DNA of 64,000 bases from Sumerlaeia bacterium (GTDB taxonomy: Bacteria > Sumerlaeota > Sumerlaeia > SLMS01 > JAHLLQ01): the NCBI GenBank assembly GCA_040219255.1, contig JAVJSW010000027.1, forward strand, positions 28,990-92,989, given 5' to 3'. The stretch's first letter is position 1, and each line of letters starts with the position of its first letter. Both the position numbers and the translations under genes were made by a program. The notes below the pieces were generated by a model. That model saw nothing but the letters and a program-made list of their open reading frames with translations. It made no database searches and was not told the DNA's origin. Of the stretch, positions 1-9,388 are shown piece after piece.

Positions 1-134
1 GCGATGGCTCGGGCATCACGCAGGCCGACACCGCCACCCTCTCCGGCGGCGAAGTGGGCACCGGCATCTTCGCCATCGCCCAGCAAGCCGCCGCCGCGGA
101 AGGAGATATCATCGACGTCCTCCTCACCCCCTAA
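1..134 (+). CDS. C-terminal part of phage capsid cement/decoration protein (DUF2190-like), truncated by window edge
   Basis: Frame from nt 3 reads DGSGITQADTATLSGGEVGTGIFAIAQQAAAAEGDIIDVLLTP*; the AxxxAxAxGDIIxVLL ending resembles DUF2190 cement proteins; lies directly upstream of the capsid gene. Confidence 0.65.
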   Translation, partial: DGSGITQADTATLSGGEVGTGIFAIAQQAAAAEGDIIDVLLTP

Positions 135-141
135 AACCAAG

Positions 142-258
142 GTAACACGGGCGTCCCGCCCGTGACCAGCCACCCCCAGCCCCCGGAACCGCCCCGCAGA
201 GAACAGCCACTTCTCGTCGGGAAATCGCCACCGATCACGGCCGAGACGGCCGTGCTAC
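142..258. repeat. Pair of GTAG-family REP-like palindromes
   Basis: GTAA-CACGGGCG-tcc-CGCCCGTG (142-164) and CACGGCCG-aga-CGGCCGTG-CTAC (236-258); first palindrome recurs at about 12053 and 29566. Confidence 0.7.
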
Positions 259-318
259 ACAGAAACCACCCTTCGGCTTATTTAGCCAAACCTACCAAAC
301 TTACCCAGGAGCAAACCC

Positions 319-1260
319 ATGCCTGATATCTCCACCGTTCACAACGACGTCGCCCTGACGAACGTCTCGGTCGCGTACCGCAATCCCATGCTGGCCGCGT
401 CCCTCCTCGCGCCGGAGGTCCTCGTCCGCCGGCAAAGCAACAAGTACTTCGTGTACGATCCGCAGCGCGAGACCGCTCGCCAGACCCGCGACGACCGCGC
501 CCCGGGCGCCGAAGCCAACGAAATCGATTTCGCCCTCTCCAGCGACTCCTACTTCTGCGGCGATCACGCCCTCGAATCGGTCATCCCCGATGAAGAACGC
601 GACAACGCCGACAGCCCCCTGGCCCCGGACGTGGATCGCACGGAATTCCTGACGGAGAAAATCCTCCTGAACCAGGAAATCGGGCTCGCCGAACTGCTGC
701 GCACCGCGCCGGAGATCCCCGGCGTGACCCTGGCCGGCAACGACCAATGGAGCGACAGCGCCAATTCCGACCCCGCGGACGACATCGAAACCGCCCGCGA
801 CGCCATCGCCGGCGCCACCCAGACCGTGCCCAACACCCTGATCCTGCCCCCAGCGGTGTACCAGAAACTGCGCCACCACCCGAAAATCGCCGAGCGCGTC
901 AAATACATCCGCCTCGGCATTCCGGGTCCGGCGGAGCTGGCCGAGTTCTTTGACGTCGAGCGCGTCATCGTGCCCCGCGCCATGGTCAACACCGCCGCCC
1001 GGGGCCAGGCCCCGGTGCTCGAGGACGTCTGGGGCAAGGACGCCTTCCTCCTCAGCGTCCCCAGCCGGCCGGGCCTGAAATCCATCGCGCCGGTCCTGAC
1101 CTTTGTCTGGGCCCGCGCCGAGGGCAGCCTGCAAGGCACCAGCGTCCAGACCTGGCGCGAGGAACGGCGCAAATCGACCATGATCCGCGTGCAGAAGTAC
1201 TACGACCAGAAGCTCGTCGCGCCCGCCGCGGCCTACGCGATCCGGTCGGCGGTGGCGTAG
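319..1260 (+). CDS. Phage major capsid protein (Mu-like / lambda gpE-like family)
   Basis: 313 aa, AGGAG RBS; motifs LTNVSVAYRN, APEVLV..QSNKYFVY, NDQWSDSANSDP..DI, PNTLIL...VYQKLRHHPKI resemble this capsid family; flanked by cement and gp36-like genes. Confidence 0.85.
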   Translation: MPDISTVHNDVALTNVSVAYRNPMLAASLLAPEVLVRRQSNKYFVYDPQRETARQTRDDRAPGAEANEIDFALSSDSYFCGDHALESVIPDEERDNADSPLAPDVDRTEFLTEKILLNQEIGLAELLRTAPEIPGVTLAGNDQWSDSANSDPADDIETARDAIAGATQTVPNTLILPPAVYQKLRHHPKIAERVKYIRLGIPGPAELAEFFDVERVIVPRAMVNTAARGQAPVLEDVWGKDAFLLSVPSRPGLKSIAPVLTFVWARAEGSLQGTSVQTWREERRKSTMIRVQKYYDQKLVAPAAAYAIRSAVA

Positions 1261-1262
1261 CC

Positions 1263-1634
1263 ATGAGCGCCCTCACCACCACCGATCTGGCCCTCGCCCT
1301 GTCCGGCGAAACGCTGGTGCAACTGACCGACGACGACCGCGACGGCTTTGCCGACGAGGCCGTTGTCGCCGAGGCGCTGGCCGGTGCGGAGCGGGAAATC
1401 CGCGACCGCACCGGCATGGCCGATGGCTCGCCGCTGGTGGGCGCCCGGCGCGATGACGCGGTGGCTCTGGCCGTCGAACGGCTGTTCCACCGCCGCCGCC
1501 AGACGCTCCCCAGCGAATGGGCCATCCGCGCCGCCGGAGCCCGCCAGCGCCTGCACCGCCTGCCCCACGGCACTGCCACCAACCGCACCCCGGACGACCG
1601 CGCCACGCGGCCCGGCAATCTGAACCGATACTAA
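1263..1634 (+). CDS. Mu gp36-like (DUF1320) head-tail adaptor
   Basis: 123 aa; LVQLTDDDRDGFADEAVVAEALAGAEREI matches the DUF1320 N-terminal pattern; follows the capsid gene. Confidence 0.75.
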   Translation: MSALTTTDLALALSGETLVQLTDDDRDGFADEAVVAEALAGAEREIRDRTGMADGSPLVGARRDDAVALAVERLFHRRRQTLPSEWAIRAAGARQRLHRLPHGTATNRTPDDRATRPGNLNRY

Positions 1635-1730
1635 ATATCGGAAATCACCTTTCGACCCCTGGGCATGGAAAGCGAACGAAGCCGTTCCGCTGTTTTCATG
1701 CCCTTTCCTAATTTTTGCAAAGGGTACAAA

Positions 1731-2747
1731 ATGCAAACCATCAATGAACGAAAGAGCGCCCTGATCGCCGCTCTTCAAACCCTTCTACCCGGCTGGCAAG
1801 TCCGCCCCGCCATGGGCGATCTCGATGCGGACAAACGCTTTGGTCTCGGCCACGCGCCGGAAATTCAGGTCGCCGCCGGGGGATGGAAACCGCCCGCTAG
1901 CGACCGCGGCCAGGGCGGCGGCACCGACCGCTGGCTGGTGCGCGTGGCGTCCGGCGATGTGCAGGGCGTGGACGATCGCCTCTGGGGCGCCGATGGGGTT
2001 CTGCCCGCCGCCGATGTCATCCGTCAAGGTCTGACCGGATTACAGTTAGCCACCGGCCACTCGCCTCTCCTGCCCGCCGGGGGCAAGCTCCTCAATGCCG
2101 GCCTGCCGGCCGTCTGGGAGGAGGTCTTCGAAGAAGCCCGACCCCTCGCCGGTCTGATCCGTGCGGCCTTTGGCGAGGGCCTGGAACTTCTCAACCTGAC
2201 CGGAGGCGCCGTCGCCCGGGGCGCCACCACTCTGCCCGATTTCGGCGCCGAGGTCGGCGATCTCGTGGGGCTCTACGATCTCTCGGGAGGCGCCATGGAA
2301 TTCCTCGGCGAAGTCCTCGCCAAAGACGCCGGCACCCTCACCGTCGAGCGCCCCACCGGCCAGGCCTTCAGCGCACTGGCCCAGGGCCTCCGCTTCGTCC
2401 ATCCCACGCGTCTGCCCACCGGCCCCGCCCTGCGCGGCGCCACCCGCCGCGAAGCCGCCACGCGCCAGGACTACACCCTCTCGGGCGCCAGCATCCGCAC
2501 CGTCCTCGCCCCCGCGCGCCAGGACCTCGATCTGACCTTTTCGCCCCTCACCGCCGCCATGGCGGACCCGCTCCGCGCCGCGTGGGACGCCTTGCTGGAC
2601 CAGCCCGAAATCGTCTGGGCCGATGGCGCAGGCGTCTTCCACCGCGCCGCCCCCCGCGCCGCCGCCGAGGTCTTTGGTCTCGGTCACAATCTCGCCGGAG
2701 TCCGTCTCGAAATGACGCTCCTGGGCACCCCGGAGGTAACCCCATGA
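1731..2747 (+). CDS. Mu gp37-like neck/terminator domain fused to a possible distal-tail-like C-terminal domain
   Basis: ATG at 1731; first ~135 aa (SALIAALQTLLPGW...RWLVRVAS...AADVIRQGLTGLQL) resemble gp37/DUF1834; C-terminal LDLTFSPLT...LRAAWDAL segment resembles Dit-like proteins (by eye). Confidence 0.5.
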   Translation: MQTINERKSALIAALQTLLPGWQVRPAMGDLDADKRFGLGHAPEIQVAAGGWKPPASDRGQGGGTDRWLVRVASGDVQGVDDRLWGADGVLPAADVIRQGLTGLQLATGHSPLLPAGGKLLNAGLPAVWEEVFEEARPLAGLIRAAFGEGLELLNLTGGAVARGATTLPDFGAEVGDLVGLYDLSGGAMEFLGEVLAKDAGTLTVERPTGQAFSALAQGLRFVHPTRLPTGPALRGATRREAATRQDYTLSGASIRTVLAPARQDLDLTFSPLTAAMADPLRAAWDALLDQPEIVWADGAGVFHRAAPRAAAEVFGLGHNLAGVRLEMTLLGTPEVTP

Positions 2748-5425
2748 GCACCGCTCTCCTGACCACCCTGACCGATTGGACGCTGACGGTGCGTTGGCTG
2801 TCCGACGATCTGACGCAAGTGTTCACCCCACAACACTTTGTAGCCCAGCCTACCTTTTCCGAATCCCTCTTCGCCCAGTGGCGCGATTCGGCCCGCACCG
2901 GCGTGCGCGGCGGGGGAGAATTCGTCCTCGATGGCGCCGCCGCTCCGGCGGCCGCGTTCCTGGCCCGCGCCCGGACGGCCGTGGCGGACACCGCCCAGGT
3001 CAGCCTCTCGCGTGGCGGAGAAACCGTGTTCTTCGGCCTGTTGGAACGCTGGGAAGCCGAACCCGGCCGCCTGACGATTCGCGTCAATCTCGAGGAACCC
3101 CTCGGCAACGACGCCCTGCTCTGTCGCGATCTGGCGGCGCTTGCCGAGGGCGCCGCCCTTGGCCTCGGCGAACCGCAATGGCTGCCCCAGATTTTCGGCC
3201 TTGCCGAGGGCCTGGAACTCGTGCCGCTGTTCCGGCCGCTGCGCGCCACGCTGCGGTCGAACTTGGGCGAGGCGGCCACCGAAATCCCACTCCGGGGCGC
3301 GGCCGCCGGGGAATTCCCCGCCACCGGCCGCGCCCAGATCGGCGAGGAAGTCGTCACCTACGCCAGCGTCCTCGCCGATCCGCCGCGCCTCGCCACGCTG
3401 ACCCGCCCCGCCGCCCGCGAGCACGAAGCCGGCGCCCCCGTTTTCCTGCTGCCTGCCGGCGATCCCGCCTGGGTCGCCGCCGACCACGGCGCCACCGTCG
3501 CGAACCTGCGCGCCGGGTCGCCATCGGGCGAAGTCATCGCCGGCGCCACCATCGCCCCGGCCACGATTTCCGGCCGCGACGCCACCACGGTTTCGCTGCC
3601 CGCCCTGCCCGTGACGCGCTTCGATGGGCCGGGCGAGCAAACATGGCTTGGCGCCTTGCGTCCGTCCGACTGGAACCTCGAAGCCCCCACCACCGCCACC
3701 TTCGCCGCCAACGCCTTTACCGGCGACGAAGGCCCCGGCGGCGCCAATCTGGCGGCTTCGACGAACGTGCTCGAAGCCACCTGGCTCCGCGATCTCGCCC
3801 GCACCAGTTTGCGCTTCTGGCAACTGCTCGACCTGCGCCTCCGCTTCCAGGTCCGCGCCCGTTCCACCTGGGGCGACACCACGAACCTGCGGGCCGAGGT
3901 CAGCCACGGCGCCAATAATTTCGTCCTCGATCTCGACAAGTTGGACGTCATCGTGTCCCAGCCCGCGCTCGACGGCGTCGCCGCGCTGGCTTCGCCCGCC
4001 GACCTGGCGCCCGCCCTGCCCGCGCCGGACCCCGCCATCGTGCGATTCGACGTCAGCACCGGCACCGACTCCAACGGCTGGGCGAACCGCCACTTTGCCG
4101 TTTCGGGCAATTTCGATCAGTGGGCCGTCTATGATCGCTCGGCGGGCGATAACATCGCGGGCAAGCTCACCGGCGTCGTCCATCGCACCGGCCTCGACCC
4201 CGATAAAGTCCTCGACCGCGTCAAGCTGCGGGCCCGCATTCGCGCGTCGTCCTTCAACCTGACGAACCTGAAAATCGTCGTTTCCGGCTTCATCAATACG
4301 AACGTCACCCGCTCCGTCTCCACCTCCTGGAGCACCATCGAACTGGACGCCGCGGCCAATGGCGCCACAGCGGCGGACCTGATCGGTGCGGCGTTCGAAC
4401 TCTATGAAGTCACTGGCGAGGATTTCGAGGTCGCCGGGTTCTGGATCGAGGCCACGCCGCTCGCCGGCGTTGGCTCCGCCGATCCCTACACGCCGGTCGA
4501 GCTCGCCCTCGCCGGCCAGGCCGACGCGCCCTCGGACTATCGCACCTTTGAAATCGACGTCTCCGCGCTTCTGCCGGCCGCCGACCCGTGGGCGCTCTTC
4601 ACCCCCGGCGGCGACGATCTGACGGTGCGCTTCACGCTGCAAGACGCCCCCTCCTATTTCGCCCTCGATCTGCGAGGCGTGCGGTGGGTCGGGCGCGCCA
4701 TCCCGCCGGGCAAGGCCGAAGCCACCGCCCGCCTCTTCGCCGACGTCACCGGCCGCCTCTCCGAACCCGATGGCGCCTGCGCGCCCGAGGCCGTGCTGGA
4801 AACGCTCCTAAGCGATGGGGATTTCCTGGCCCTGCCGGGCGACATCCTCGACAGCGCCAGCTTCATCGCCGCGGGTACCGAACTGGCCGCCCAGAACCGC
4901 CGCCTGCGGGCCGCCTTCGCCGAACGCCTCGCCATCCGCGACGCCTTCCGCCGGGCCCTCGCCGAGAGCTTCGCGGTCCTCGCGCCCTCCGCGGGCCGGT
5001 GGGCGCTGCGCGTTCTCGAAGCCACCGCCCTCACCCTGCGCGACGCCACAGAGGACGACCTCCTCCAATTTCCCGGCCCCCGCGCCGGCGCCCCGCCGCT
5101 CCTGCAAGCCGCCCGCCTCCGCTTCCTCGACCGCCACAGCGGCGCGCTCCTCGGCCAGGCCACCCGCCCGTCCGGCGCGGGCCAGGCCGACTGGACCGTG
5201 ATGTGGCTGGCCGACGGGTTCGCCGAACTCGCCACCGCCGCCTTCGCCCGCTTCGGCGTCCCCCACGAAGCCTGGACGGCGCCCCTCAGCCCCGCCTGGC
5301 TCGACCAATCCCTTGGAACCCATGCCAGGCTAACCGCCGAGGCCTGGGCCCTCGCCAACACCCCCGCCCCGATCATCGCAAGGCGCTTCGAGGCGGGGCG
5401 GCTGGAGGTGGAGGTTTTGGTGTAG
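2744..5425 (+). CDS. Large phage tail-tip/baseplate-hub-like protein
   Basis: ATGA overlap with previous gene; LPQIFG and IGEEVVTY...LTRPAAREHEAGAPV motifs recall tail-tip proteins; beta-rich central region. Confidence 0.55.
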   Translation: MSTALLTTLTDWTLTVRWLSDDLTQVFTPQHFVAQPTFSESLFAQWRDSARTGVRGGGEFVLDGAAAPAAAFLARARTAVADTAQVSLSRGGETVFFGLLERWEAEPGRLTIRVNLEEPLGNDALLCRDLAALAEGAALGLGEPQWLPQIFGLAEGLELVPLFRPLRATLRSNLGEAATEIPLRGAAAGEFPATGRAQIGEEVVTYASVLADPPRLATLTRPAAREHEAGAPVFLLPAGDPAWVAADHGATVANLRAGSPSGEVIAGATIAPATISGRDATTVSLPALPVTRFDGPGEQTWLGALRPSDWNLEAPTTATFAANAFTGDEGPGGANLAASTNVLEATWLRDLARTSLRFWQLLDLRLRFQVRARSTWGDTTNLRAEVSHGANNFVLDLDKLDVIVSQPALDGVAALASPADLAPALPAPDPAIVRFDVSTGTDSNGWANRHFAVSGNFDQWAVYDRSAGDNIAGKLTGVVHRTGLDPDKVLDRVKLRARIRASSFNLTNLKIVVSGFINTNVTRSVSTSWSTIELDAAANGATAADLIGAAFELYEVTGEDFEVAGFWIEATPLAGVGSADPYTPVELALAGQADAPSDYRTFEIDVSALLPAADPWALFTPGGDDLTVRFTLQDAPSYFALDLRGVRWVGRAIPPGKAEATARLFADVTGRLSEPDGACAPEAVLETLLSDGDFLALPGDILDSASFIAAGTELAAQNRRLRAAFAERLAIRDAFRRALAESFAVLAPSAGRWALRVLEATALTLRDATEDDLLQFPGPRAGAPPLLQAARLRFLDRHSGALLGQATRPSGAGQADWTVMWLADGFAELATAAFARFGVPHEAWTAPLSPAWLDQSLGTHARLTAEAWALANTPAPIIARRFEAGRLEVEVLV

Positions 5426-5515
5426 TGGCGCAGCCACAATTGGATTGCTACAACCCTTCCGGATCACAAGATTGTCATTAGAATATCTGGCGCGAGTCGT
5501 CTTAAGGAGGGGGCT

Positions 5516-8230
5516 ATGGAGCTTTCAATATTGAACGGAGAGACGGCTTCGCCCTGGACCAGGGCCACCCCCCTTGCGGTGGTGCTGCTGGCTGCCTTGG
5601 CGGTGCCACTCTGTGCCCAGGAATGGCGAGGTTTTCCGTTTCGAACCTTCGATGTAGGTGATTCGCCTGGAAGTATGATCACGGGGGACTTCAACAACGA
5701 CGGCATCACGGATCTCGCCACCGCCAATGGATTGTCCCACGATGTCACGGTGCTTCTGGGCAATGGGAGCGGGGGCGTCGGGGACTCCACTTTCGCCAGC
5801 CATGGTGCCTATGTCACGGGACGCGAGCCAGGTAGCGTGACGTCAGGGGATTTCAACGGCGATGGTATCACCGACCTTGTCACTTCCCATTTCGGTTCCG
5901 ATAACGTGTCGGTGCTACTGGGGAACGGGTCCGGTGGCGTGGGCGACGGGACCTTCGCCACCCATGTCGCCTATGACGCCGGCGATCAGCCGAACAGCGT
6001 GACCACGGGGGACTTCAACGGCGATGGCATCATAGACCTCGCCATCGCTAACCGACGTTCCGAGAACATCTCGGTGCTACTGGGCAACGGCAGCGGGGGC
6101 GTAGGTGACGGCACCTTCGCCGAACAAGTCACCTACGCCGCCGGAGACGCGCCCCGTAGCGTGGTGACAGGGGACTTCAACGGCGACGGCATTACCGACC
6201 TCGCCACCGCAAACTCCAACTCCGACAACGTCTCGGTGCTGCTGGGGAACGGCGACGGCACCTTCGCAACCCAGGTCACCTACGCCGCGGGGGATGGGCC
6301 CAACAATGTGACGACGGGGGATTTCAACGGGGACGGCATCACCGACCTCGCGACCGCAAACTCCGACTCCGACAACATCTCGGTGCTGCTGGGGAACGGG
6401 TTTGGTGGTGTGGGCGACGGCACCTTCGTCACCGATGTTGCCTATGGCGCCGGCGATGGGCCGAACAGCGTGACCACGGGGGACTTCAACGGCGACGGCA
6501 TCACCGACCTCGCCACCGCGAACTTGTATTCCGACGACGTCTCGGTGCTGCTGGGCAACGAGTCCGGGGGAGTGGGCGACGGCACCTTCGCCGCCGCAGT
6601 CAACTACAACGCGGCCAATGGGAACTTTAGCGTGGCGACCGGAGATTTCAACGACGACGGCATCACCGACTTCGCCATCGCGATCTCAAGCTCCGGCAAC
6701 GTCTTCGTGTTGCTTGGCAATGGCAGTGGGGGTACTGGTGATGGCACCTTTGTCTCTAAAGTTACATACGCCTCTGGGGCTTACCCCTTTAGCATCACAT
6801 TGGCAGACTTCAACGGGGATAGCGTCCCCGACCTCGCCACTGCGAACTCGTTTTCCGACGATCTCTCGGTGCTGCTGGGCAATGGGAGCGGGGGCGTAGG
6901 GGAAGGCACCTTCGCCCCCCCTGTCAACTATCCTGCAGGTGACTACCCATACAGCGTAACAACGGGAGACTTCAACGACGACGGTATTACCGACCTGGTC
7001 ACCGCGAATTTCTATTCCGACGAGGTTTCTGTGTTGCTGGGGAGCGGGTCCGGTGGGGTGGGCGACGGCACCTTCGTCCCACAGGTCACATTCGCCGCTG
7101 GCGACGGGCCTGTCAGCGTGGCGACGGGGGATTTCAATAGCGACGGCATCACCGATCTCGTCACAGCGAATTCGAGTTCCAGCAGTGTCTCCGTACTCTT
7201 GGGCAACGGGTCCGGAGGCGAGGGCAACGGAACCTTCGCAAGCCACACTACGTACGCCGTCGGGCACTCGCCCTGGAGCGCTACGACGGGGGATTTCAAT
7301 AGCGACGGCATCACCGATCTCGTCACAGCGAATTCAACCTTTGACAAGGTTTCGGTGCTGTTGGGCAATGGCTTCGGAGGAGTGGGCGATGGCACCTTCG
7401 CCACCCACGCCAGCTACCACGCCGGGAACTCACCAAGAAGCGTGACCACTGGGGATTTCAACAGCGATGGCATCACCGATCTCGCCACCGCGAATTACTC
7501 CTCTGAGGATGTATCGGTGTTGCTCGGCAACGGGAGTGGAAATACCGGAGACGGAACGTTCTCCGCCCCGATTTCCTACCCCGTCGAACGCGAACCCGTA
7601 AGCGTGATCACGGGGGATTTTAACAGAGATGGAATTACTGACATCGCCACCGCGAACAGAGGATCGAACAACGTCTCAGTACTGCTAGGCAATGGGCCCC
7701 GAGCCGTGGGTGACGGCACCTTCGCCGCCCAAGTCACCTATGCTACCGGAGATGATCCCATTAGCATAGCGGCCGGGGACTTGAACGAAGACGGACTCAC
7801 CGACCTTGTCGCTGCCAACACCCTCTCCGATAACGTCTCCGTGCTGCTGAACCTAGGATTATTCGAAGCTGAACCGGAACCGGACCCCGTCCTGACGCCC
7901 AACGCTCTGGTGTTCGGAAACGTCGAGGCGGGGTCCGGGTCGTCCAGCCTTCCCGTGGTGATCGAAGTCACGGGCGACGCGGATCTGATCTCGACTCCGA
8001 CTCTGACGAACGATGGCGGGGGTGTTTTCAGCATCACCGCGATCCCCGCTTCCCCTCTCGCGCAAGGGGCCAACGACACCCTCGAGGTGTCGTTCGCGCC
8101 TGATCGCCTCGGACGTTTTGTTGGCGAGGTAAGTCTCGCCACAAACGACCTGAGCAGCCCTGTTATCCTCATCCACCTTAGCGGCAGCAGCTTGGACCCC
8201 AGAGCTTCGACTGGCTGGTTGGCGAATTGA
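5516..8230 (+). CDS. Secreted FG-GAP/VCBS repeat protein (14 repeats) with C-terminal Ig-like domain
   Basis: AAGGAGG RBS, signal peptide (LAVVLLAALAVPLCA); 14 ~55-aa repeats TGDFNxDGITDLATAN...VSVLLGNG; LVFGNV...VSFAP...LATND Ig-like domain. Confidence 0.9.
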   Translation: MELSILNGETASPWTRATPLAVVLLAALAVPLCAQEWRGFPFRTFDVGDSPGSMITGDFNNDGITDLATANGLSHDVTVLLGNGSGGVGDSTFASHGAYVTGREPGSVTSGDFNGDGITDLVTSHFGSDNVSVLLGNGSGGVGDGTFATHVAYDAGDQPNSVTTGDFNGDGIIDLAIANRRSENISVLLGNGSGGVGDGTFAEQVTYAAGDAPRSVVTGDFNGDGITDLATANSNSDNVSVLLGNGDGTFATQVTYAAGDGPNNVTTGDFNGDGITDLATANSDSDNISVLLGNGFGGVGDGTFVTDVAYGAGDGPNSVTTGDFNGDGITDLATANLYSDDVSVLLGNESGGVGDGTFAAAVNYNAANGNFSVATGDFNDDGITDFAIAISSSGNVFVLLGNGSGGTGDGTFVSKVTYASGAYPFSITLADFNGDSVPDLATANSFSDDLSVLLGNGSGGVGEGTFAPPVNYPAGDYPYSVTTGDFNDDGITDLVTANFYSDEVSVLLGSGSGGVGDGTFVPQVTFAAGDGPVSVATGDFNSDGITDLVTANSSSSSVSVLLGNGSGGEGNGTFASHTTYAVGHSPWSATTGDFNSDGITDLVTANSTFDKVSVLLGNGFGGVGDGTFATHASYHAGNSPRSVTTGDFNSDGITDLATANYSSEDVSVLLGNGSGNTGDGTFSAPISYPVEREPVSVITGDFNRDGITDIATANRGSNNVSVLLGNGPRAVGDGTFAAQVTYATGDDPISIAAGDLNEDGLTDLVAANTLSDNVSVLLNLGLFEAEPEPDPVLTPNALVFGNVEAGSGSSSLPVVIEVTGDADLISTPTLTNDGGGVFSITAIPASPLAQGANDTLEVSFAPDRLGRFVGEVSLATNDLSSPVILIHLSGSSLDPRASTGWLAN

Positions 8231-8509: not shown

Positions 8510-9388
8510 TTAGGCCTTCCGGAATCCGGCGCCGGAGAGGTCGCGGAAGCGGGCTTTGACGAATTGGTAGGCGCCGTAGGCGGCCACGCCGATGGCGACG
8601 ACTCCCAGCAGCCAGGGGCCGTAGCTGGTGGTGGCCAGGGTGTTCAGGGCTCCGCCGAGGCCGCGGGCTTCGTTGGGGTCCTGCTGGATGGCGGCGACGA
8701 TGAAGAACCCGCCGATGATGCCGAAAATCACGGCTCGCGAAGCGTAGCCCGCGCGGCCAAAGACCTTCACCGCTTTGGCGACTTTGTTGGTCATTTCGTG
8801 GCGCTTGAGTTTTTTCCAGAATTCCGCCTTCACCACGTTCTTGTAGAAGTGGATCAGCCCGACGATGACAATGATCGCGCCGAAAATCCCGACGAGCCAT
8901 TGGCCGAAGGGTTGGCTCATGAGCTTGGCGGTCCAGCCTTTGGCGCCGCCGCCTTGGCCGCCGCCGGAGCTGTTGCCGATGACGAGGGCGAAGGCCTGGA
9001 TCGCCAGACCGGTGTAGAGGACGGCGCTGGCACCGTGGTAGGCGCGCTTGACCCAGCCGGATTTGCCGTTGTTTTCGCGCTCGGGATCGAGGACCGCTTG
9101 GGCCGCTCGCCAAGCCACGTAGGCCACAAGGCCGATGCCCATAAGGACGAGCATGATCTGGCCAAAGGGTTCGTCGGCGATGGAGCTGATGGCGCCTTTA
9201 CTGCCGGTGACCTGGCCTTCGCCGCCGCCGGAGAAGGCGGCCTGGGCGGCGAGAACGCCGACGATCAGGTAAACGACACCTTTCGCCACAAAGCCGGTGC
9301 GGGCTAGGATTTCGAGAGGGGATCGGGAATCCCGGTTGGGCACCGCCTGGTCGGCGGCTTCGTGGGTCATGCCTTTCGCGTTCGCCAT
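8510..9388 (-). CDS. DUF1206 family membrane protein
   Basis: LARTGFVAKGVVY, PFGQIML, GRAGYASRAVIF, EARGLGGAL, YGPWLL repeated transmembrane motifs. Confidence 0.85.
   Translation of the reverse strand: MANAKGMTHEAADQAVPNRDSRSPLEILARTGFVAKGVVYLIVGVLAAQAAFSGGGEGQVTGSKGAISSIADEPFGQIMLVLMGIGLVAYVAWRAAQAVLDPERENNGKSGWVKRAYHGASAVLYTGLAIQAFALVIGNSSGGGQGGGAKGWTAKLMSQPFGQWLVGIFGAIIVIVGLIHFYKNVVKAEFWKKLKRHEMTNKVAKAVKVFGRAGYASRAVIFGIIGGFFIVAAIQQDPNEARGLGGALNTLATTSYGPWLLGVVAIGVAAYGAYQFVKARFRDLSGAGFRKA

Follow-up and report, generated by a model that had tools for sequence, protein, structure and literature searches.

A Mu-like head, neck and hub gene cluster conserved across the phylum Sumerlaeota may encode a tubeless, gene-transfer-agent-like particle

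The DNA analysed here, called the window below, is a stretch of 64,000 bases (G000:C27:28990-92989, with 28,989 bases of the same contig lying upstream) from G000, a metagenome-assembled genome of a Sumerlaeia bacterium that comprises 5.35 Mb in 83 contigs and is 92% complete. Genome labels such as G000, and the family labels f5, f7, f12 and f13 used further on, are labels of this analysis. Positions 1-5425 of the window hold the last five of seven Mu-like phage structural genes arranged like an operon, in the order portal, protease, cement, capsid, gp36 adaptor, a two-domain fusion protein and a baseplate hub, and it is this cluster, its distribution and its probable product that concern us. 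Genes were called from third-position GC, and proteins were compared with Pfam and PHROGs.

All seven genes lie on the plus strand. The cluster begins outside the window with a Mu-type portal (C27:25748-27238, 496 aa; PF06074, 3.7e-98) and a head protease (C27:27503-28285, 260 aa; phrog_976, 4.3e-40). The cement or decoration gene follows (C27:28440-29123, 227 aa; phrog_673 'head scaffolding', 1.3e-07), and the window holds only its last 134 bases (1..134); its assignment rests on relatives, in which versions of 124-132 aa match PF09956 (2.6e-06) and PF22758 (6e-05), families that correspond to the N-terminal 100-120 residues of the 227-aa protein. The major capsid protein (window 319-1260, 313 aa) matches phrog_1005 (5.6e-73) and, within Pfam-A, only PF03864 (1.6e-07) and, weakly, PF09950. 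The head-tail adaptor, of the Mu gp36 type (1263-1634, 123 aa; PF07030, 1.3e-05; phrog_195) starts 3 bases past the capsid stop codon, and its homologues in relatives give matches of up to 8e-29. The last two genes, which are without a family match and owe their names to modelled folds, encode the fusion protein (1665-2747, at most 360 aa, as translation may in fact begin at the ATG of 1698 or 1731) and the hub or tail-tip protein (2744-5425, 893 aa), whose ATG overlaps the stop codon of the fusion gene. An earlier note on this DNA, made from the sequence alone, had described five intact and tightly spaced genes here, and that description holds.

Tube, terminator and distal-tail proteins share one common fold and stack on each other, and the fusion protein appears to join two of them. 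Its AlphaFold model, built on an alignment of 29 rows of relatives (A3), has a pLDDT of 90.3. Residues 22-165 form a tail terminator, with the Mu protein 9khy_1 as a match (Z 15.7, root-mean-square deviation 2.8, 131 aligned) and with further matches to the pyocin collar (Z 13.7), lambda gpU (Z 12.2) and the terminator 6tba_4A of the Rhodobacter capsulatus gene transfer agent, RcGTA (Z 11.8). Residues ~161-357 resemble tube and distal-tail proteins less closely (Chi tail-tip 8vjh_B, Z 8.5; T1 tube 9l0f_G, 8.2; JBD30 8rk3_D, 8.1), and we assign this half, more weakly, as a predicted domain of the distal-tail/tube fold. In family f5 the two halves are separate genes, the first of which matches PF08873 (Phage_Mu_Gp37) at 2.7e-18. 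The hub model (27 rows, A2; pLDDT 88.3) found the Sf11 tail (4.1e-10), T5 pb3 (6.9e-10) and lambda gpJ (8.8e-09) by Foldseek, and VIA gave Z of 15-17.4 to VgrG1, T4 gp27, T5 pb3, the MuSo2 43-kDa tail protein, JBD30 8rk3_b and RcGTA 6tba_8A. Inserted at residues ~427-573 is a jelly roll resembling carbohydrate-binding modules and lectins (CBM32, CBM16 and the lectin domains of lectinolysin, Z ~10). In a word-based search for homologues the hub found nothing but itself, and tblastn of it against 50,697 phage records gave no match. Given these fold matches, the names proposed earlier for the two proteins, a gp37-like fusion and a tail-tip-like gene, were right.

The cluster is set in host DNA. 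The spacer between cement and capsid (window 134-274) carries a repeat of the repetitive extragenic palindrome (REP) type, made of two short GC-rich hairpins, that has 43 further matches on many contigs of the genome; three of these are inside the cluster, two in the portal-protease spacer and one in the protease-cement spacer. With copies in three spacers and the genes unharmed, host repeats have evidently colonised the cluster without damaging a gene. GC at third codon positions is 0.78-0.89 in the module and 0.76-0.90 in neighbouring host genes, so that the host-like composition and the host REP element described in the earlier note are both borne out. A scan of window 1-5700 for promoters and terminators found nothing above shuffled sequences, and an inverted-repeat scan found one weak palindrome. 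Phage-like genes do end after the tip gene, as had been stated: the 34 gene calls between 9.4 and 64 kb are host-type or without family match, and none matches a phage family. Upstream, contig C27 supplied the portal and the protease and then host genes; terminase, transposase and replication genes were not found there. The same is seen elsewhere, for in six loci (the window's and those of five annotated relatives) the flanks contained no terminase, integrase, transposase, replication, lysis or regulatory module, and the flanking host genes differ from locus to locus. Phage structural genes whose flanks are without replication, integration or transposition genes of their own are what one expects of gene transfer agents and other viriforms. 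The Mu transposase C-terminal domain PF09299 had no match in G000, although the control of that search was equally silent.

The earlier note had proposed to inspect the upstream contig for portal, protease and terminase, and the first two are there; the system does have an intact large terminase (TerL), encoded elsewhere, on contig C49. This lone TerL (G000:C49:89382-91136, minus strand, 584 aa; phrog_38, 5.4e-76), found via PF17289, sits among host genes, with hisI/MgtC at one end and, at the opposite end, proB and a gene for Fe-S assembly, and is present in 37 of the 41 relatives that we compared. A comparison of 25 sequences shows its motifs unchanged or almost so (at least 96%): in G000 numbering, a Walker A motif P93-R94-G95-x-A97-K98, a Walker B motif D198-D199 with E201, G237-T238, and the nuclease residues D393 and D534/D535/D538. 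In G001 and G019 TerL lies 6-10 kb from the cluster; in the complete genome G036 the distance is 132 kb. Overlapping the TerL start is an open reading frame (ORF) of 145 aa (G000:C49:91051-91488, minus strand), a counterpart of which stands directly upstream of TerL in 20 of 25 TerL loci (by profile, in 24 genomes, with two of the matches weak). The ORF has no family match, and Atlas gave only weak leads to small terminases (0.83; TM 0.50/0.40); from its position, our guess is a candidate small terminase or specificity factor. In two genera of family f13 (G033:C1:5638000-5649800; G039:C101:1-9000) TerL is split at the same point into an ATPase ORF and a nuclease ORF, which could be a frameshift, a functional split or decay. 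PF03354 and PF20441 had no match in G000.

The sole PF03237 match in G000 is a second TerL, on contig C78, and it was considered as the terminase of the module and rejected, as it belongs to a separate phage-like genome. That contig (49,462 bases) also carries a portal (phrog_3753), a DnaG-type primase, DnaB, a class II ribonucleotide reductase, a single-stranded DNA-binding protein, MazG, a ParB-like protein and a methylase, and has no relation to the conserved module.

The capsid gene occurs in 35 of the 41 relatives (14 families). A profile search across the phylum Sumerlaeota found it in 62 of 75 species genomes, among them 35 of the 43 with completeness of at least 90% and contamination of at most 5%; neither of the two genomes outside the class Sumerlaeia has it. 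It is nearly always in single copy and never has internal stops. Identity to G000 declines with taxonomic distance for the capsid (62-70% within the family, 55-64% within the order and 54-61% within the class, with one outlier at 45%) and for TerL (52-62%, 50-56% and 39-46%), as it does for leucyl-tRNA synthetase, LeuRS (65-75%, 61-71% and 42-48%). Trees of capsid, TerL and LeuRS from the 23 genomes with all three sequences, rows having been dropped only where one sequence was lacking, have 11-13 of 20 bipartitions in common, where label shuffles gave 0.3 on average and never more than 4, and their patristic distances correlate with a Spearman coefficient of 0.79-0.83 that none of 999 Mantel permutations reached; since kin are not independent, these figures describe congruence and not a probability. 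This pattern supports vertical inheritance of the cluster within the phylum, which the earlier note had proposed to test, from a date that would precede the radiation of the class Sumerlaeia, and the patchy strain-level spread expected of a mobile Mu-like prophage is not what the module displays.

A set of 62 loci, collected by capsid profile, comprises 51 labelled Sumerlaeota, Sumerlaeia, Sumerlaeales, Sumerlaeaceae or BRC1, five without a taxon label and six from other groups (three Poribacteria, two Chitinophagaceae and one Chloroflexota, at 34-40% identity). The Poribacteria and Chitinophagaceae loci carry portal-protease-capsid(-gp36) modules, with capsids 38-40% identical to those of Sumerlaeota, and may be further head-only modules or ordinary prophages; no TerL of the Sumerlaeota type was found within ~7 kb upstream of the portal in the Poribacteria loci.

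Selection was gauged from the ratio of nonsynonymous to synonymous substitution (dN/dS, NG86) in unsaturated pairs, taken as those with dS 0.1-0.6. Ratios were 0.02-0.08 for capsid, 0.08-0.11 for portal, 0.03-0.27 for gp36, 0.05-0.24 for cement, 0.12-0.30 for protease, 0.13-0.26 for the distal-tail protein, 0.17-0.21 for the hub and 0.09-0.14 for TerL, beside 0.06-0.14 for the LeuRS control; none is near 1, the value that had been named beforehand as telling against a maintained particle. Synonymous divergence is close to that of LeuRS, both in the pair G025-G034 (0.13-0.20 for the module and 0.23 for LeuRS) and in the pair G032-G038 (capsid 0.43 and TerL 0.47, with LeuRS at 0.54). The cluster is, in short, inherited vertically under purifying selection, as expected of a gene transfer agent or viriform.

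These results bear on the choice, left open in the earlier note, between a reduced particle maintained by the host and a prophage remnant, in which a Mu-like prophage would have lost its tube, tape measure, terminase and transposase by deletion while the rest decays neutrally. The cluster is indeed a subset of a Mu-like siphophage late region, and the C78 contig and a tail remnant on contig C49, described below, show that phages do strike this genome. A decaying remnant would nonetheless be hard to reconcile with the presence of the capsid as a single, uninterrupted copy in 62 of 75 species, with trees congruent with that of LeuRS, with dN/dS of 0.02-0.3 at a dS similar to that of LeuRS, with an unlinked TerL that is co-inherited and retains its catalytic motifs, or with host REP elements in three spacers and no damage to the genes. 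We consider a remnant extremely improbable; the sequence evidence excludes neutral decay and favours a reduced particle kept by its host.

The ancestry of the module can be read from its gene order. In the Mu-like siphophage JBD67 the late genes run TerS (small terminase), TerL, portal, gpF-like, Neck1, protease, scaffold, capsid, adaptor, gp37-like, major tail protein, chaperone, tape measure and tip proteins, and the Sumerlaeota cluster is this order minus defined pieces and with TerL relocated. B3-like phages (Beetrevirus) such as JBD67, and Casadabanvirus phages such as JBD30, have the same succession of portal, protease, capsid, gp36, gp37, distal-tail and hub, and in the JBD30 baseplate (8RK3) chains b and D resemble the Sumerlaeota hub and the C-terminal half of the fusion. 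The contiguous late region of a Mu-like phage, with TerS-TerL before the portal and with tube, chaperone and tape measure between gp37 and the tip, is not present: before the portal stand a host glycosidase and LeuRS, and nothing lies between the gp37 half and the distal-tail half. In contrast to Mu-like siphophages, the cluster has beside it no TerS-TerL, gpF or gpG homologues, tube, chaperone, tape measure, lysis genes or transposase; capsid identity to those phages is only ~30%, and the Sumerlaeota cluster is fixed and vertical, not mobile. The capsid has 170 matches among the phage records, all below 60% identity and the best at 30-35%, and IMG/VR yielded two fragments of 4-6 kb with 59-62% identity and the Sumerlaeota gene order, and otherwise nothing above 35%.

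Gene order was constant across the loci surveyed with profiles built here, which were 76 loci and the window's contig, about a dozen of them being the same genome twice and many being cut by contig ends; with these limits, sources with a match numbered 76 for capsid, 73 for cement, 72 for protease, 59 for portal, 53 for gp36, 41 for the 360-aa protein and 36 for the hub. The neck occurs in three layouts. In the first (a), the fused terminator::distal-tail protein is present, as in the window's order. In the second (b), that of family f5, a separate gp37 is followed by a 178-aa immunoglobulin (Ig)-domain protein (phrog_2175), ORFs of 111 and 151 aa, a distal-tail protein of 203 aa and a hub of 1128 aa, and no gene of tape-measure size is present in this neck region. 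In the third (c), gp36 is directly followed by a distal-tail protein of ~205 aa and then by the hub, with no gp37. The three extra small genes of layout (b) (178, 111 and 151 aa; G025 locus L031:10744-12130, and also L062 and L096) lie between gp37 and distal-tail, were found only in f5 loci and may be relics of a tube and its chaperones; tblastn of the five f5 neck proteins against G000 gave no match, and as this held even for gp37 and the distal-tail protein, absence of the extra genes is not shown by it. The parts are also dispersed to varying degrees: in some families the locus ends after the capsid, in family f12 portal and hub are on other contigs, and in the complete genome G033 four loci carry the head genes (147-151 kb), gp36 (462 kb), the hub (5606 kb) and TerL (5643 kb).

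That terminator and distal-tail domain are fused, and that gp36 abuts the distal-tail gene in layout (c), argues that the particle would have no tube and that the two ends of a long tail would be joined directly in the predicted assembly. The earlier note had considered a deletion as the source of the missing tail genes, and here we differ from it: the order of the tip genes indicates that tube, chaperone and tape measure were removed by the terminator::distal-tail fusion, not by random deletion.

It might be asked whether the missing tail is simply encoded elsewhere. PF10145 finds one tape measure in G000 (C49:14542-17025, 827 aa), within a tail cluster of myovirus type (C49:11000-26100) that also encodes a tail protein (phrog_52), a hub/lysozyme (phrog_430) and wedge proteins (phrog_43 and phrog_6); sheath, capsid and terminase were not seen among the ORFs scanned. 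Tail genes elsewhere in the genome, named earlier as a finding that would speak for an ordinary prophage, are thus present as a myovirus-type remnant, but they stand outside the conserved system: a homologue of the C49 tape measure exists in only 3 of the 41 relatives, so that we rejected the cluster as the module's missing tail and regard it as a patchy remnant, by its looks one of a prophage or a tailocin. In G005 the contig that bears a homologue of the tape measure also bears a second capsid gene, with only 30% identity to the conserved one, and this looks like a real Mu-like prophage.

The C49 cluster is also relevant to the possibility that the module belongs to a satellite of the kind of the capsid-forming phage-inducible chromosomal islands (PICIs), making its own heads and taking its tails from helper phages, which might be Mu-like myophages of the sort that left the C49 genes. 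Hallmarks of such islands are an integrase, att sites and a regulatory or replication module beside the head genes, and no tail-tip genes of their own. These islands do resemble the present case in having a head and connector set without tube or sheath, and G000 does contain a Mu-like tail and baseplate cluster. Yet the flanks of the six loci have no integrase, replication or regulatory module, the parts are vertically inherited and scattered over several loci, the cluster has a hub and a distal-tail protein of its own, and the putative helper tape measure is confined to 3 of 41 relatives. A satellite is in our view highly unlikely.

We suggest instead, with fair though not strong confidence, that the cluster is the structural core of a domesticated, GTA-like particle derived from a Mu-like siphophage and vertically inherited, with TerL and a small ORF at a separate host-flanked locus. 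In such a particle a capsid processed by the protease and stabilised by the cement protein would be filled with DNA by TerL through the portal, which the gp36 adaptor would then close. Where a tail would be, the fusion protein would form a hexameric double ring, with a terminator layer and a distal-tail layer, that joins the head directly to a trimeric hub, whose lectin-like insert would bind cell-surface glycans. The product would be a short-tailed particle without tube or tape measure, carrying DNA between cells in the manner of a gene transfer agent; its assembly, stoichiometry, packaged DNA, release and delivery are all predicted from the gene set.

What the particle is for can be argued from the terminase. 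An intact terminase that co-diverges with the capsid means that DNA packaging is probably the selected activity, and this makes a gene-transfer-agent-like role our leading hypothesis, for which we would put the chances at even or slightly better. The same conservation would apply equally to a domesticated particle with another purpose, whether a glycan-binding particle for killing or adhesion, a phage decoy or a container for host cargo, in which TerL has another role or packages DNA as a by-product. Such a purpose would suit a hub with a lectin-like insert that evolves fast, as expected of a surface-recognition protein, the absence of the tube and tape measure that long-tailed phages use for DNA delivery, and the apparent retention in some families of only head genes and TerL. 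That the ATPase-nuclease terminase is intact, keeps invariant motifs, evolves under purifying selection and diverges in step with the capsid speaks for DNA packaging as the selected activity, and portal and adaptor are conserved too. We judge a purpose other than gene transfer unlikely, if by some way the most serious of the alternatives.

Several observations weigh against a domesticated gene-transfer particle. A particle without tube and tape measure has no demonstrated route for DNA across the envelope, and lysis, regulator and small-terminase functions are unmatched to any gene of the system. The assignment of the C-terminal half of the fusion as a distal-tail domain has only Z ~8 behind it. 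Hub and gp36 were not found, with the profiles used, in family f7 (two genomes, one of them complete), and TerL is in two ORFs in family f13. The capsid was not found in 13 of the 75 phylum genomes, eight of which are at least 90% complete, so that the system must be dispensable or sometimes lost. Neck and tip genes evolve fast, with ~31% identity within the family where the capsid has 69%. Among sequencing runs, no RNA run was listed with the locus, a result that speaks neither for nor against the particle, and one DNA run holds 0.35 of the words. Pairs within the window's own order are saturated (dS 0.7-1.8), and their ratios of 0.08-0.6 are for that reason unreliable.

The most instructive comparison is with RcGTA (Rhodogtaviriformidae, 6TBA). 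There too, phage-derived head, neck and tip genes are fixed in the chromosome, vertically inherited and under purifying selection; genes for replication and integration are absent, the parts occupy more than one locus, and the likeness extends to the folds of terminator (6tba_4A) and hub (6tba_8A, Z 15.2). The Sumerlaeota system differs in its ancestry (a Mu-type portal of PF06074, gp36, gp37 and a phrog_1005 capsid) and in its phylum, and also in that TerL is unlinked from the portal, tube and tape measure are absent, and the terminator is fused to the distal-tail domain. PF06074 (Portal_Mu) was the sole match of the portal in Pfam-A at the 0.01 limit, and of the Sumerlaeota proteins only terminator and hub resembled RcGTA chains, at the level of the fold; the RcGTA head genes belong, we assume, to Pfam families other than those matched by the Sumerlaeota cluster. 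The RcGTA particle is a solved structure, that of Sumerlaeota a predicted one. As a functional analogy, short-tailed phages of the T7 and P22 kind likewise join the head to a short adaptor and hub without tube or tape measure. The Sumerlaeota parts, however, are homologues of long-tail proteins (terminator, tube-fold ring and gp27-like hub), not of the podovirus adaptor and nozzle, and no ejection proteins were identified in the Sumerlaeota system.

More tentatively, and with rather less than even confidence, we would propose that this is a new kind of gene transfer particle: a Mu-derived capsid bearing a double ring and a glycan-binding hub, tubeless and filled by a terminase encoded elsewhere, in which a long-tailed virus has been turned into a short-tailed host device for DNA delivery that may be the main vehicle of gene exchange in the phylum. 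Only a few gene transfer agents, from a small number of lineages, have been demonstrated by experiment, and a Mu-derived particle inherited vertically throughout Sumerlaeota would, if true, carry the phenomenon into an uncultured candidate phylum that is known from metagenomes alone and provide a concrete hypothesis for DNA exchange among its members. The three neck layouts would form a natural series in which a long tail is reduced to a stub, and this series is relevant to how short-tailed morphologies arose and to the smallest set of parts needed to join a head to a receptor-binding hub. Seven genes and TerL are a set small enough to express and image, which makes the idea directly testable. 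A literature search found no published account of a capsid or gene-transfer-agent system in Sumerlaeota; the main text of a comparative genomics study of the phylum (PMC8092238) does not contain the words 'phage', 'capsid', 'viral' or 'terminase'.

Host genes surround the cluster in G000. Upstream, LeuRS (C27:20420-23323, plus strand, 967 aa; class I tRNA-synthetase and LeuRS editing-domain families) is followed by a GHL10/Golvesin glycosidase (C27:23468-25078, minus strand, 536 aa; PF25275 and PF02638), and a gap of 670 bases separates the glycosidase from the portal. Downstream, a DUF1206 protein (window 8510-9388, minus strand, 292 aa; PF06724) precedes a long series of genes that includes BamA, McsB/ClpC, RuvB, MurJ, NusB and PurE/K. 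Directly after the hub, at window 5516-8230, stands a protein of 904 aa (PF13517 and PF01839) with 13 FG-GAP/VCBS repeats and an Ig-like domain, which is not conserved beside the module in relatives.

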